Shown here: positions 2,537 through 35,233 of the stretch, piece after piece
Numbering within the stretch: the first letter of the stretch is position 1
Layout: every line of letters starts with the position of its first letter
Assembly: GCA_041649115.1 (NCBI GenBank)
Contig: JBAZNT010000011.1
Location: forward strand, 1 to 49,845
Source: Candidatus Omnitrophota bacterium
GTDB taxonomy: Bacteria > Omnitrophota > Gorgyraeia > Gygaellales > Profunditerraquicolaceae
DNA: 49,845 nt
Direction of reading: 5' to 3'
Program-made: the position numbers and the translations under genes
The notes under the pieces: generated by a model
Databases searched by the model: none
What the model was told of the DNA's origin: nothing
Seen by the model: the letters and a program-made list of their open reading frames with translations, nothing else

Positions 2537-3235
2537 TTATTTGCTGCGGCAGCAGCGAAACGCATGCGAATCGCTCGCGGCACCGGCGTAGCCAACGGAA
2601 CCGCAGGAAGAGTAGCCCCGGACGAGCGCGAGGGTCGCCGGAGCGTAGGCGCTGCCGGAGTCCCAAGAATCGACCCATTCATAGTTTCCGGTCATACCGC
2701 TTGCCTTGTCGTAAACACAGGCATTATACCACTCCGAGGAAGTGCACAGGCGCGCATTGTATGGATCTGCGCAGTAATCGGAAGCCGCATACCAGGTCTT
2801 AGCAGAGTTTTCATTTGTCTGGATACAGTAGCCGTATCCGGTATCCGTGAAGCCATCAGGGCAAGAGCCTTCTGCTATCGTCTGCCATCCGTCAGTCGCG
2901 CCTTTATATACATACAACTGGCTGTCCGAATCATAATAAACCACCTCTCCTTCCACATTATCAGAATCCGGAAGAGAAGTCTGCGGCTTATAGATTACGC
3001 CCCTGGCGACGTACAATTGGCCGTTTGCCGAGGGTTGATCCGGGCTGTCCAATGTTCCGCTTCCGTCCGTATCCCCCACCGCCATCTTGTTGGTCTGCAG
3101 TTCATTATAAACGCCGTGAGGGGCCGGATAGTAAGTAGTAATGGTAAGGCTTTCTTCGGCCGCAAGAAAAGAACGGGGGGCAATGAGAAAGTTTAGAAAG
3201 AGAGGGAGTAGTAATGATATCTTTGGTTTAAACAA
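2537..3235 (-). CDS. Secreted protein with N-terminal ITTYYPAP module and C-terminal C-type lectin (CLec/FGE-like) domain; candidate DGR target
   Basis: AAGGAGG lies 6 nt before TTG at 3235 (the track start at 3241 abuts the SD). It has a signal peptide, then CPDGF...YCI...TWYAASDYC...ARLCTSSEW..AC...EWV...RG...FRCC. Confidence 0.7.
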   Translation of the reverse strand: MFKPKISLLLPLFLNFLIAPRSFLAAEESLTITTYYPAPHGVYNELQTNKMAVGDTDGSGTLDSPDQPSANGQLYVARGVIYKPQTSLPDSDNVEGEVVYYDSDSQLYVYKGATDGWQTIAEGSCPDGFTDTGYGYCIQTNENSAKTWYAASDYCADPYNARLCTSSEWYNACVYDKASGMTGNYEWVDSWDSGSAYAPATLALVRGYSSCGSVGYAGAASDSHAFRCCRSK

Positions 3236-3824: not shown

Positions 3825-4673
3825 ATGGACTCTAACACCAGCGCAATAGTTAAGATCGCGGGGCTTTTGAAGGATTGCAGGAGCATCCTTTTTATCACCG
3901 GCGCAGGTATCTCCGCAGATTCCGGTTTGCCGACCTACCGCGGCGTCGGGGGCCTGTATAACGGCAAGGCAACGGAAGACGGCATACCCGTGGAAGCGGC
4001 CCTGGCAGGAGAGACCTTAAGGACGCATCCGGAGATAACCTGGAAATACCTCCTTCAGATAGAGGGGAACTGCCGCAAGGCCAGATTCAACCGCGGCCAT
4101 GAGGTGATTGCCGAGATGGAGAGGCATTTCCAGCGCGTATGGGTATTGACGCAGAATATTGACGGTTTCCATCGCGCTGCGGGATCCCGTAACGTCATCG
4201 ACATCCACGGTGATATGCATTCGCTGATGTGCCCCTCATGCGGCTGGCGGGATAGTCTGAAAGATTACGCAGGCCTGGATATCCCGCCGCGCTGTCCGCG
4301 GTGCCGGGAGATCGTAAGGCCGGAGGTCGTATTTTTCGGCGAGATGCTTCCCGAGGATAAGCTAAGTAGCTTGATGCGTCAGCTGCGCGAAGGCTTCGAC
4401 ATCTATTTTTCCATAGGCACCAGCAGCGTCTTTGCGTATATAAGCCAGCCGATAATTGCGGCAGCACACCTCGGCAGGCCGACAGTTGAGATTAACCCCG
4501 GCTCAAGCGATGTATCGGATATCGTAAGTATTAAATTATCGATGGGCGCGGCAGAGGCGCTGGATTTAATCTGGAAGGAATATAATAAGGAAGGTAGCCC
4601 CATAAAGGGGCAAAGGAGGAGGCAATGGAGAGCAAGGCCATCGGGGTTGCAAGCGCGATTCTCTGGGGCATAG
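3825..4673 (+). CDS. cobB: NAD-dependent protein deacylase (sirtuin, CobB-like)
   Basis: GAGISADSGLPTYRG, TQNIDGFH, HG, Zn ribbon CPSC/CPRC, RPEVVFFGE and IGTS motifs. About 30 extra C-terminal residues overlap the next ORF. Confidence 0.9.
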   Translation: MDSNTSAIVKIAGLLKDCRSILFITGAGISADSGLPTYRGVGGLYNGKATEDGIPVEAALAGETLRTHPEITWKYLLQIEGNCRKARFNRGHEVIAEMERHFQRVWVLTQNIDGFHRAAGSRNVIDIHGDMHSLMCPSCGWRDSLKDYAGLDIPPRCPRCREIVRPEVVFFGEMLPEDKLSSLMRQLREGFDIYFSIGTSSVFAYISQPIIAAAHLGRPTVEINPGSSDVSDIVSIKLSMGAAEALDLIWKEYNKEGSPIKGQRRRQWRARPSGLQARFSGA

Positions 4674-4813
4674 GCATACTGCTTCTTCTGGCTGCGGCTT
4701 TTGACGTCTTGCCTATTTCGGATAATGAGGCGATATTCCTGGCAATAGCATGTTTCATCATCATGGTGGTGGTTAAAAGGATAGGCAAGACAGGAAGCGG
4801 CTGCTGTAAATAA
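4625..4813 (+). CDS. Small two-TM membrane protein ending GSGCCK
   Basis: Strong SD (AAGGAGGAGG) before ATG 4625 and two hydrophobic helices in 62 aa. Confidence 0.7.
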   Translation: MESKAIGVASAILWGIGILLLLAAAFDVLPISDNEAIFLAIACFIIMVVVKRIGKTGSGCCK

Positions 4814-4855
4814 AGGTTACCAGCCGCGAGGTTTATTTACTTGTAGTAGTGTAGA

Positions 4856-4884
4856 TACGCAGGGAAGCGTAAGACGATGGCGTT
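4856..4884 (+). promoter_or_regulatory. Dual hexaloop hairpins (ANTAR-like antitermination motif) in the amtB leader
   Basis: TACGC-AGGGAA-GCGTA (loop A1/G4) is followed by GAC-GATGGC-GTT, which overlaps the 5' arm of the terminator at 4877. Confidence 0.45.
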
Positions 4885-4909
4885 CCTTTTATACGGAACG
4901 CCATTTTTT
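4877..4909 (+). terminator. Intrinsic terminator 1 upstream of amtB
   Basis: Perfect 10-bp stem ATGGCGTTCC/GGAACGCCAT followed by a T-tract. Confidence 0.8.
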
Positions 4910-4920
4910 ATTATAGGACG

Positions 4921-4970
4921 CAGGCGTCTTTTTGAAGCCGGCTGAAGGCTTTTAAGAGGCGCCTGTTTTT
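4921..4970 (+). terminator. Intrinsic terminator 2 upstream of amtB
   Basis: Long stem CAGGCGTCTT..GAAGCC / GGCTTT..AAGAGGCGCCTG followed by TTTTT. Confidence 0.75.
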
Positions 4971-5008
4971 ATTTATAAATAACATAGAAAGGAAGGAGAG
5001 AGACGCAT

Positions 5009-6367
5009 ATGCTTAAGACCATCGTTCTTTTAATAACAGCGTTTTTGGGGATAAGTTCCCTATGCTTTGCCCAGGATCCCGGCGGAGCCGCCACCCTGGC
5101 TGCCAATCCTCAGGCGCCGGTAGATTACGTCTGGGTCCTGATATGCGGGTTTCTGGTATTCTTCATGCAGGCGGGGTTTGCCATGGTTGAGGCAGGGTTC
5201 TGCCGCGCCAAGAACGCCACCAACCTGATGGCCAAAAACACCATTGATTTCGTGGTTGCTTCCTTGGTTTTTATGGCTTTCGGGTTCGCGTTTATGATGG
5301 GTGATGACCTCGGCGGCCTGATAGGGACTACGGGATGGTTTTTGCACGGCTCAAATTATGACGTGGGAAGGTACCTGGTGTTTTTCTGGCAGCTGGTATT
5401 CGCAGGCACAGCCGCTACCATTGTTTCCGGAGCGGTCGCAGAGCGCCTGAAGTTCAAGGCATATTTTCTTTATAGCCTCGCTGTTACGGCTATAATATAT
5501 CCTATCTACGGCCACTGGGTCTGGGGAGGCGGATGGCTTTCAAAACTGCCTTTTGGCTTGGGGCATATTGATTTTGCCGGCTCAGGGGTAGTCCATACCG
5601 TAGGAGGCATTGTCGGGTTGGCAGGGGCAATCGTCCTGGGGCCGCGTTTTTCGAAATTCTCCAGAGACGGCAAGCCCAAGGCCATTCCGGGGCACAGCAT
5701 TACCCTGGCCGCCTTAGGTACCTTTATCCTCTGGTTCGGGTGGTTTGGTTTTAATCCCGGCTCAACGTTTTCCGCCCACCAGCTAAGGATAGCGGTGATA
5801 GCGGTAAATACCAACCTTGCGGCTGCCGCAGGAGCAGCAACAGCGATACTTCTGGTTTTTGCCAAGACCAAGAAGTGGGACGTAGGCATGATGCTTAACG
5901 GCTGCCTGGCAGGGCTTGTTGTGATAACCGCTCCCTGCGCCTGGGTTGAGGCCTGGGCCGCGGTTGTTATCGGTACCGTAGCAGGCGCCCTGGTTGTTTT
6001 AGGAGTTTATTTCTGGGAGGCGCGCGGCATTGACGACCCGGTGGGCGCGGTAAGCGTACACGGCATAAACGGAGTCTGGGGCCTCTTGAGCGTCGGGATA
6101 TTTGCCGACGGCACCTACGGCCTGGGGACAACCGAAGGCCCGCTGGTGAGGGGCCTATTATACGGCGGAGGCTTCGGCCAGTTAATAGCGCAGGCCATCG
6201 GTGCGGCAGTGTGCGTCACCTGGGCATTTGCGCTTGGGTTTGCGGTGTTCAAACTGATGGATAAATATTTCGGAATCAGGGTTTCTCCGGATGAGGAGCT
6301 CAAAGGCCTGGATATACCGGAGCACGGGACGCCTGCTTATCCGAATTTTTACACCTACAACAATTAA
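5009..6367 (+). CDS. amtB: Ammonium transporter
   Basis: FFMQAGFAMVE, DFAGSGVVH, WFGWFGFNPGS and DDPVGAVSVHG motifs; both pore histidines are present. Confidence 0.97.
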   Translation: MLKTIVLLITAFLGISSLCFAQDPGGAATLAANPQAPVDYVWVLICGFLVFFMQAGFAMVEAGFCRAKNATNLMAKNTIDFVVASLVFMAFGFAFMMGDDLGGLIGTTGWFLHGSNYDVGRYLVFFWQLVFAGTAATIVSGAVAERLKFKAYFLYSLAVTAIIYPIYGHWVWGGGWLSKLPFGLGHIDFAGSGVVHTVGGIVGLAGAIVLGPRFSKFSRDGKPKAIPGHSITLAALGTFILWFGWFGFNPGSTFSAHQLRIAVIAVNTNLAAAAGAATAILLVFAKTKKWDVGMMLNGCLAGLVVITAPCAWVEAWAAVVIGTVAGALVVLGVYFWEARGIDDPVGAVSVHGINGVWGLLSVGIFADGTYGLGTTEGPLVRGLLYGGGFGQLIAQAIGAAVCVTWAFALGFAVFKLMDKYFGIRVSPDEELKGLDIPEHGTPAYPNFYTYNN

Positions 6368-6386: not shown

Positions 6387-6427
6387 GGCTTGGCGCTTGC
6401 GCGGCAGTGAAGCGTAAGCGCCGAGTC
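6387..6427 (+). other. 16-bp intercistronic hairpin between amtB and glnK
   Basis: GGCTTGGCGCTTGCGC pairs with GCGTAAGCGCCGAGTC (including G-U pairs), 9-nt loop, no T-tract. Confidence 0.7.
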
Positions 6428-6442
6428 AAAAGGAGGACATAC

Positions 6443-6781
6443 ATGAAAAAGATAGAAGCGGTATTAAGGGTAGAGAAACTGGAAGAGGTAAGCGATGCCC
6501 TGGAGAAATTCGGCTATCCCGGGATGATGATAACGCATATCGAGGGCCACGGCCGGCAGAAGGGTTTAACCGAGCAATTCCGCGGGAGGGAATATAAGGT
6601 GAGTTTTCTTCCCAAGATAAAGGTGGAGATTATCGTAAAGGACGCTGACGCGGATAAGGTCGTCAATTGCATTGCCGCTACCGCCAAAACCGGCGAGATA
6701 GGAGACGGAAAGATATTTGTTTATTCGGTTGAGGAGGTTATGCGGATACGCACTGGCGAGAAGGGTGAGGGCGCCGTTTAG
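6443..6781 (+). CDS. glnK: PII nitrogen regulatory protein
   Basis: AGGAGG SD before ATG 6443 gives the canonical 112 aa. GHGRQKG, T-loop Y51, LPK and TGEIGDGKIF are present. Confidence 0.95.
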   Translation: MKKIEAVLRVEKLEEVSDALEKFGYPGMMITHIEGHGRQKGLTEQFRGREYKVSFLPKIKVEIIVKDADADKVVNCIAATAKTGEIGDGKIFVYSVEEVMRIRTGEKGEGAV

Positions 6782-34432: not shown

Positions 34433-35233
34433 ATGGAGTATCTTTTCGATAAGTGGGACGACGTACGCAAGGGAATAGCCGGCAAGCCGCTTTTTATTTT
34501 TCTGGATTTTGACGGCACCCTGGCTCCGATTGTCGAAAGGCCGGAGGCGGCATCCCTGCCTGCCGCAACAAAAGAGCTGCTTAGGAAGCTGTCGGCTGAA
34601 CCCAGGTTTAAGCTGGCGTTTATAAGCGGTAGGTCGCTGGCAGACGTCAAGGAAAAGGTAGGATTAAAGGACGTTATTTATTCCGGAAACCACGGCTTGG
34701 AGATCGAGGGGCCGAAGATTAAGTTTGAGCCTCTGGTTTCTGCCGGATACAAGACCCTGATACGCGGCATAAAAAGCGAATTGGCAAAGGGGATTGCCGC
34801 GATTAAAGGCGCGCTGCTGGAAGATAAGGGGTTATCATTGAGCCTGCATTACCGCCTGGTAGCGCCGCGGCAGCTCTTGGCCCTTAGGATGACTTTCCGG
34901 AATGCCATAGTCCCGCACCGCCTCAAAGGCAAGATAAAGGTTAATAAGGGTAAGAAGGTTTTTGAGGTCAGGCCGGCTATGGAGTGGGATAAAGGCAAGA
35001 TTGTCCTTTGGCTTCTGGCAAGGGAGTCTTTTGCGGCAGGAGAGAAAGAGATTGTCCCGGTTTACCTGGGGGACGACCTTACCGATGAGGATGTCTTTCG
35101 TGCCCTAAAAAATAAAGGGCTGACTGTCTTGGTGGGTAACGGCAGGCCGTCGGCAGCAGCCTATTACGTAAGGGACCACCGGCAGGTACAGAGGTTTTTA
35201 AAGATGCTTTTGGAGAGCCGTTTAGACAGATGA
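34433..35233 (+). CDS. otsB: Trehalose-6-phosphate phosphatase (HAD)
   Basis: FLDFDGTL, ISGR, GNHGLE, GKKVFEVRP...DKG and YLGDDLTDED motifs. Confidence 0.93.
   Translation: MEYLFDKWDDVRKGIAGKPLFIFLDFDGTLAPIVERPEAASLPAATKELLRKLSAEPRFKLAFISGRSLADVKEKVGLKDVIYSGNHGLEIEGPKIKFEPLVSAGYKTLIRGIKSELAKGIAAIKGALLEDKGLSLSLHYRLVAPRQLLALRMTFRNAIVPHRLKGKIKVNKGKKVFEVRPAMEWDKGKIVLWLLARESFAAGEKEIVPVYLGDDLTDEDVFRALKNKGLTVLVGNGRPSAAAYYVRDHRQVQRFLKMLLESRLDR

Follow-up and report, generated by a model that had tools for sequence, protein, structure and literature searches.

The RNA motif of ANTAR proteins consists of two hairpins with hexaloops that carry A at position 1 and G at position 4 (A1/G4), the second of which overlaps a terminator (PMC3369931, PMC3369936). 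Computational predictions from several phyla place targets of this kind in front of amt, P-II, glnA and GOGAT genes (PMC3369931, PMC3369936). The phyla named in the predictions of Ramesh 2012 are Firmicutes, Proteobacteria, Actinobacteria and Bacteroidetes; Omnitrophota is not among them. Desulfotomaculum acetoxidans, for example, has 13 predicted hits in six transcription units. Among the closest described systems is GnfK/GnfR of Geobacter sulfurreducens, in which an ANTAR protein works on leaders with Rho-independent terminators before nifH, glnK and amtB under nitrogen limitation (Ueki & Lovley 2010, PMC2995071). GnfR binds CAGGCAANGGCGCC in the nifH leaders, and the same sequence occurs in the glnK and amtB leaders (PMC2995071). 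The EutV/EutW system acts on the eutP, eutG, eutS and eutA leaders of Enterococcus faecalis, which have dual A1/G4 hexaloops, with recruitment at the first hairpin (P1) and the second hairpin overlapping the 5' arm of the terminator (Ramesh 2012, PMC3369931; Walshe 2022, PMC8934654). The EutV-RNA structure has a dimer on a single hexaloop, the G4 of which is flipped out onto a tyrosine; the authors proposed that the dimer is first recruited by P1 and from there passes to the antitermination hairpin (PMC8934654). NasR at nasF in Klebsiella and AmiR at amiE in Pseudomonas are one-component or partner-controlled ANTAR proteins that bind a hexaloop hairpin upstream of a leader terminator in a nitrogen-source operon.

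Omnitrophota are uncultured, mostly ultra-small bacteria. A literature search found no publication on ANTAR proteins in this phylum and nothing published on its gene regulation. The window analyzed here is the whole 49,845-nucleotide stretch that forms contig C11 of a 1.3-Mb, 90%-complete Omnitrophota metagenome-assembled genome (MAG). Positions 4816-5008 are best explained as the promoter and 5' leader of an amtB-glnK operon. ANTAR control of amtB and glnK leaders is already known from Geobacter GnfR and from the predictions of Ramesh 2012; a well-conserved example in Omnitrophota is new. Four aspects appear to go beyond the textbook case, namely the P1-P2-P3 layout, the tolerance for either purine at loop position 1, a GAF sensor and a putative feed-forward wiring of sigma factor and antiterminator. 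The features of the window are as follows.

4816-4845, forward strand: promoter-like motif GTTACCAG-N12-TTTACTTGTA
4856-4871, forward strand: P1, recruitment hairpin UACGC-AGGGAA-GCGUA, 5-bp stem, hexaloop with A1 and G4, -4.9 kcal/mol
4873-4884, forward strand: P2, antitermination hairpin 1, GAC-GAUGGC-GUU, 3 bp (one of them G-U) and a 6-nt loop, -1.1 kcal/mol
4876-4909, forward strand: T1, intrinsic terminator 1, 11-bp stem, 8-nt loop, U6, -18.4 kcal/mol
4915-4930, forward strand: P3, antitermination hairpin 2, AGGAC-GCAGGC-GUCUU, 5-bp stem, -4.8 kcal/mol
4921-4971, forward strand: T2, intrinsic terminator 2, long two-part hairpin (4921-4966) followed by U5 (4967-4971), -30.5 kcal/mol
4990-4999, forward strand: ribosome-binding site of amtB, AGGAAGGAGA, read directly from the sequence, 10 nt 5' of the ATG at 5009
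5009-6367, forward strand: amtB, ammonium transporter, 452 aa (Pfam PF00909, E 1e-130)
6407-6781, forward strand: glnK, P-II signal protein (Pfam PF00543, E 5.5e-30)

The order from the stop codon of the preceding small ORF (4813) to the start of amtB (5009) is the promoter-like motif, P1, the single nucleotide A4872, P2, T1, P3, T2 and the ribosome-binding site, and the gap of only 37 nt between T2 and the ATG contains the ribosome-binding site. Upstream is an operon of a Sir2-family gene and a small membrane protein gene (3825-4813), on the same strand as amtB, that ends 60 nt 5' of T1. The small gene (4625-4813) is a 62-aa hydrophobic ORF that shares 49 nt with the 3' end of the Sir2-family gene; it is kept in a relative of the same genus and has no family match.

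A sequence-only reading of this DNA had described two strong terminators back to back before amtB, the first of them preceded by the hairpin TACGC-AGGGAA-GCGTA, and all three structures were recovered. The T1 stem-loop (4876-4905) is GAUGGCGUUCC-UUUUAUAC-GGAACGCCAUU, with the U6 run at 4904-4909, and T1 was also found by a terminator scan. Both T1 and T2 have the form of intrinsic terminators, i.e., a G+C-rich hairpin and then a U run. The same reading had placed a mini-hairpin with a 3-bp stem over the 5' arm of each terminator; both mini-hairpins are present, but the second one has a 5-bp stem. They are weak alternatives that consume the 5' arms of the terminators. The loop and 3' half of P2 are the 5' arm of T1, and the 3' half of P3 is the 5' arm of T2; hence P2 (4873-4884) and the T1 stem-loop (4876-4905) overlap and are mutually exclusive, as are P3 (4915-4930) and the T2 hairpin (4921-4966). 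The complete leader folds with z = -7.8 against shuffled sequences, and together with the energies of P1, T1 and T2 this value indicates that the default fold is P1 plus both terminators.

The loops of the three short hairpins are AGGGAA (P1), GAUGGC (P2) and GCAGGC (P3), so that G4 is present in all three, and position 1 is A in P1 and G in P2 and P3. The G in both antitermination loops had been noticed before, and it means that the window does not have A1 in both loops of the pair. Free P2 and P3 RNAs prefer an extra G1-C6 pair that leaves a tetraloop (for P2, a form with 4 bp and a tetraloop), and the hexaloop forms of P2 and P3 should therefore be regarded as a model of the bound state. 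The linker between P1 and P2, which the sequence-only reading had called very short, is indeed 1 nt (A4872) and is outside the published ranges (5-12 nt in the eut leaders and 2-25 nt in a curation rule). A separate partner hairpin for P3 is lacking. The hairpin inside T2 was considered as the partner hexaloop and rejected, since it shows no conservation of G4 and takes a different form in the genus of the window. In most genera this inner hairpin is ATCC-A(5-6 nt)-GGAU (alignment A2); in the genus of the window it is instead GAAGCC-GGCUGAA-GGCUUU (4934-4952). When the leader was scanned against Rfam at a permissive E-value, only chance matches of the microRNA type were returned, none of them near a gathering score.

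The amtB promoter is not placed downstream of 4970 by these data, a point that matters to the earlier reading; a motif that would serve as promoter lies at 4816-4845 and occurs throughout the family. Exactly three copies of GTTACCAG-N12-TTTACTTGTA without mismatch exist in this genome, and every one of them precedes a nitrogen operon. The two outside the window are the following.

Contig C6, 37472-37501: motif copy 2, before a small HTH gene-amt-glnK operon
Contig C6, 39487-39516: motif copy 3, before the glnA-GATase-HTH-gltB genes

When up to two mismatches are allowed, 71 of 101 family genomes have the motif, at 1-6 copies each, and a reversed control pattern is almost absent. A 178-aa protein encoded at C6:36932-37468 has a full-length match to the ECF sigma-70 superfamily (TIGR02937, 50.5 bits; cut-off 42.9), and its gene ends immediately 5' of one of the motif copies. 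Genomes with the sigma gene number 61 of 101, and all 61 have the motif, versus 10 of the 40 that lack the gene (61/0/10/30; Fisher p 2e-17). The usual boxes of ECF promoters are GGAAC and CGTC, and those of the 4816-4845 motif are unlike them. We conclude that the motif is probably a nitrogen-regulon promoter read by a dedicated ECF-type sigma factor, an assignment that we infer from the conservation of the motif and its co-occurrence with the sigma gene. If the motif is taken as the promoter, the amtB transcript would start upstream of P1, as an attenuation model requires. The DNA-binding domain of sigma-54 (PF04552) was not found in a profile search of the 90%-complete genome, and nitrogen control of the NtrC/sigma-54 type is therefore probably absent. 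The sigma-54 activator domain (PF00158) was dropped as an indicator; it gave only weak AAA+ matches, which also appeared in all of the control genomes and so were uninformative.

The motif was then the handle by which leaders were collected, giving 152 distinct loci from the same Omnitrophota family. The first recognizable gene 3' of the motif is glnA at 26 loci, a Fis-type HTH gene at 18, amt at 18 and a P-II gene at 11; at most of the remaining loci the first gene has no match to the small reference set used. In the genome of the window the Fis-type HTH gene precedes gltB.

The short hairpins were counted in these 152 leaders with patterns anchored on the closing pairs only. P1 (CAC-N6-GUG) was found in 102 leaders, with G4 in all 102 and position 1 being A in 75 and G in 26. 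P2 (AC-N6-GUUC) was found in 105, where G4 is present in 102 of 105 loops and position 1 is A in 87, G in 16 and another nucleotide in 2. The P3 pattern (AC-N6-GUCU) is present in 50 leaders; 48 of 51 loops have G4, and at position 1 G predominates (G 32, A 16, 3 others). The same three patterns occurred 3, 18 and 6 times, respectively, and without a G4 bias, in a control of 88 kb of adjacent, mostly coding DNA. The hairpin pattern is thus far beyond chance. Position 1 appears to need only a purine, and G1 is best read as a tolerated variant that reflects relaxed specificity. A variant recognition code, which the sequence-only reading had put forward for the G1 loops, draws little from these counts, since a purine stands at position 1 in all hairpin types and P2 of the same-genus relative has A1. 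A single ANTAR protein would face both A1 and G1 loops, which again suggests a tolerated purine and not a separate code. The published curation of ANTAR-target RNAs accepts one point deviation per loop (PMC8164766).

In that same-genus relative, whose AmtB is 95% identical, the whole leader is present; its P2 loop is AACGGC (A1, G4), and T1 differs from that of the window by a compensated change from U-A to C-G. More distant relatives were compared in an alignment (A1) of 33 amt-class units. In it, 93% of the T1 cells are paired and compensatory changes occur at 4 pairs, and pairing falls to 38-57% in slid-register controls. P1 has a 4-bp stem with compensatory changes between AU and GC. P2 has two invariant pairs (AC/GU) and a third pair in 21 of 33 units, without a two-sided change. 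For T2, RNAalifold on 38 relatives gave a 10-bp basal stem with compensatory changes at 5 pairs, and P3 is 91% paired yet invariant. Covariation in relatives had been suggested earlier as a check on the hairpins. All elements are kept and compensatory changes support P1, T1 and T2, but P2 and P3 lack two-sided changes; both are nearly invariant, and for them pairing is inseparable from plain conservation of the sequence. Pairing of loop positions 1 and 6 was rejected as a constraint, as it holds in only 26 of 38 P3 hairpins. The AC before P2 and the AAGAC before P3 are invariant or nearly so and lie outside the terminator stems. Because the AC is invariant though it is not part of the T1 stem, either P2 or a protein contact is needed as an explanation.

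The modules are combined in several ways. With patterns that require G4, 64 of the 152 leaders have P1 and P2, 26 have P1, P2 and P3, as in the window, and 11 have P1 and P3. The layout with three hairpins and two terminators is found, in all 26 cases, before P-II, amt or unclassified genes. In one genome (G013) such a leader precedes a hydrophobic N-terminal ORF that lies ahead of amtB, rather than amtB itself. The P3/T2 module precedes P-II or amt genes in all but two of the classified cases and otherwise unclassified genes; a single case is before a glnA gene, and none is in the Fis-HTH class. In 11 leaders P3/T2 directly follows P1 and replaces P2/T1, which indicates a second kind of antitermination module rather than a separate device. 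From the P1 loop to the P2 loop there are 15-22 nt in leaders of the amt/P-II class, with a mode of 17-18 nt in the amt class, and leaders of the glnA/HTH class have a wider gap of about 27-45 nt. The window, at 15 nt, is together with its same-genus relative the shortest of 100 family units.

Two further observations concern these leaders. The long P1-P2 spacer of glnA-class leaders (C6:39543-39600 in this genome; in relatives, for example, L015 at 3150, L035 and L128) has a second conserved TAGGCA box, and in the glnA and Fis-HTH classes this spacer box repeats the 5' flank of P1. In several genera a hairpin unit, GCAGAAAGCAACACACC-(variable hairpin)-GGGUGU, is present in 1-3 tandem copies between the ANTAR terminator and an amt or unclassified first gene (L004 and L013, both on the reverse strand, the latter with a unit at 3226; L017, L059 and L125). 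This GCAGAAAGCAACACACC unit has no Rfam family match and is missing from the window.

The genome of the window has similar modules in five sister leaders, those of a second amt-glnK operon (HTH-amt-glnK), the glnA...gltB genes, pyrG, a glutamate-synthase-like gene and a nadE-ECF sigma operon. A covariance model built from alignment A1 and run on the genome scored the window at 56.8 bits and the second amt leader at 59.6 bits, and it also found the glnA leader. The latter bears out an expectation of the sequence-only reading, i.e., that the motif would recur upstream of glnA or gltB, as it does at C6:39487-39640. The three leaders with a sigma-70-like promoter are as follows.

Contig C6, 48433-48504: leader of pyrG (CTP synthase, a glutamine amidotransferase), P2 loop AACGGC, found by the covariance model
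Contig C6, 33165-33226: leader of a gene for a 530-aa protein with a glutamate-synthase domain, loop AAAGGC, found by the covariance model
Contig C6, about 35060-35210 (L032 2061-2210): leader of the nadE-ECF sigma operon, found by eye

The nadE-sigma leader, which the covariance model from A1 missed, has P1 AUAC-AGUGAG-GUAU, P2 AGAC-GAUGAA-GUCU over a terminator and then a second, T2-like terminator. The presence of this module suggests that the sigma factor itself is gated by the same antiterminator, which would be a feed-forward wiring. A genome-wide search for AC-RNNGNN-GU followed by a hairpin and a U run was set aside as unspecific (50 matches versus 46 in the reversed genome). Only seven of its matches are credible, and they are in leaders of nitrogen genes; one match between tRNA genes on contig C13 was discarded. 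A 58-aa Cro/C1-like HTH ORF (C6:37600-37776) separates the second amt gene from its leader, and in a genome of another family (G037; L029) a similar ORF takes the equivalent position.

An ANTAR gene, which the sequence-only reading needed, exists in this genome. Exactly one ANTAR domain was detected (PF03861, 64.6 bits), in a 241-aa GAF-ANTAR protein whose gene, on contig C4, is directly 3' of a type I glutamine synthetase gene, glnA. The ANTAR part of the protein matches Rv1626, EutV and NasR, and its GAF domain scores best against PtsP (EI-Ntr) and GAF domains of the NifA type. Within the family, 93 of 101 sampled genomes have an ANTAR protein, often encoded on the same contig as the leaders. 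The close relatives of the protein are from Candidatus Omnitrophota or from mislabeled 'Planctomycetales' MAGs. Presumably the GAF domain couples RNA binding to nitrogen status; glutamine or 2-oxoglutarate as its ligand is a guess by analogy with the GAF domains of PtsP and NifA, which sense these compounds.

This locus can now be compared with the systems described above. The bound GnfR site can be written GGC-AANGGC-GCC, and it has the same terminator-overlapping ANNGGC hexaloop as the Omnitrophota leaders. However, GnfR is a response regulator of the REC-ANTAR type that is phosphorylated and controlled by sigma-54/GnfLM, whereas the Omnitrophota protein is a one-component GAF-ANTAR, PF04552 is undetected in its genome, the promoter motif is probably of the ECF type and two terminators lie in series. 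The eut leaders share the dual hexaloops, but their linkers are 5-12 nt, and shortening one of them to 3 nt abolished induction, as compared with 1 nt here (15 nt from loop to loop), a length outside the range that worked for eutP. Each eut terminator also has its own P1, whereas here one P1 stands before two antitermination hairpins, and the eut system uses a REC sensor for ethanolamine use where this one has a GAF sensor and ammonium uptake. The predicted targets of Ramesh 2012 resemble the present ones in motif class, in gene functions and in having several elements per transcription unit. NasR and AmiR differ in having a NIT domain and an AmiC partner, respectively, in acting at a single terminator and in responding to nitrate and amide signals.

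The explanation that we consider probable, and hold with good confidence, is that the leader works by ANTAR-mediated antitermination at two serial terminators, served by the GAF-ANTAR protein and a putative ECF-type promoter. The double-gated control of ammonium uptake put forward in the sequence-only reading is thus supported by the anatomy of the leader, its conservation and the ANTAR gene, with binding and antitermination as predicted steps. T1 and T2 could be nothing more than ordinary fail-safe terminators of the Sir2-small membrane protein operon that insulate amtB, with the hexaloops being a coincidence. The genes of that operon share the strand of amtB and end 60 nt before T1, so their read-through would stop here. 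However, a conserved promoter-like motif lies between their stop codon and T1, about 100 leaders with many different genes upstream have the same modules after the motif, and the AC, the AAGAC and the whole of P1 are conserved outside the terminator stems. Such a role alone is very improbable.

Given that the leader is a real attenuator, its reader might be something other than an ANTAR protein, for example a small molecule in a riboswitch, another RNA-binding protein or one of the small HTH proteins of the regulon. The ANTAR gene is on another contig, the link between protein and RNA is indirect and two motif-bearing relatives have no detectable ANTAR gene, both being incomplete MAGs. Yet an invariant G4 with a purine at position 1 in short hairpins is the ANTAR signature, the ANNGGC loop type equals the bound GnfR site (PMC2995071), and the high frequency of ANTAR genes in the family, often on the leader contig, points the same way; the leader also has no conserved core of the size of a ligand pocket and no Rfam match. 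We regard a different reader as unlikely. A further possibility is that AAGACGC..GCGTCTT (and ACNNNGGCGT) is the DNA operator of a dimeric repressor and not an RNA hairpin at all, since the commonest version of P3, GACGCAGGCGTC, is an almost perfect DNA palindrome and HTH proteins are encoded in the regulon. This reading of P3 was rejected because the symmetry is lost in variants: loop positions 1/6, 2/5 and 3/4 are complementary in 29, 24 and 3 of 48 P3 hairpins and in 25, 18 and 5 of 110 P2 hairpins. G4 is invariant without a symmetric partner, and the sites are always on the sense strand and overlap a terminator arm. An operator at these sites would be hard to credit.

Returning to ANTAR-mediated antitermination, the leader might work in the following manner. 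Transcription would start just 3' of the motif at 4816-4845, probably through the dedicated ECF-type sigma factor. By default, T1 and T2 would form in series as the RNA emerges, and with two such stable terminators little transcript would reach amtB. When the GAF-ANTAR protein is active, it would bind the hexaloop of P1 first and then stabilize the weak P2, which would sequester the 5' arm of T1; further on, it would stabilize P3 and sequester the 5' arm of T2. With both arms sequestered, RNA polymerase would read through both stops, so that the predicted direction of the response is more amtB-glnK transcript when the protein is active. A single recruitment at P1 would then supply the protein to both hairpins further down, which would account for the lack of a separate partner for P3.

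More tentatively, one can imagine how nitrogen control in the whole family might be organized without NtrBC/sigma-54, GlnR/TnrA or NtcA. The GAF-ANTAR protein may sense glutamine or 2-oxoglutarate directly and gate both the sigma operon and every operon that the sigma factor reads, i.e., a coherent feed-forward loop, with a P1-P2-P3 relay at amtB-glnK. We consider this scheme possible but somewhat doubtful as a whole.

In conclusion, this leader and its five sister leaders offer a testable picture of how ammonium uptake and assimilation may be controlled in Omnitrophota, with a GAF-ANTAR protein acting on terminators over a dedicated sigma factor. The family alignment amounts to about 250 natural hairpins, with a purine at position 1, an invariant position 4 and one upstream hairpin before two antitermination hairpins. 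The last of these features bears on a puzzle of the ANTAR field, the need for two hairpins although a dimer binds only one of them. If true, the P1-P2-P3 relay would support the 'hand-off' model of ANTAR dimers that occupy one hexaloop at a time.
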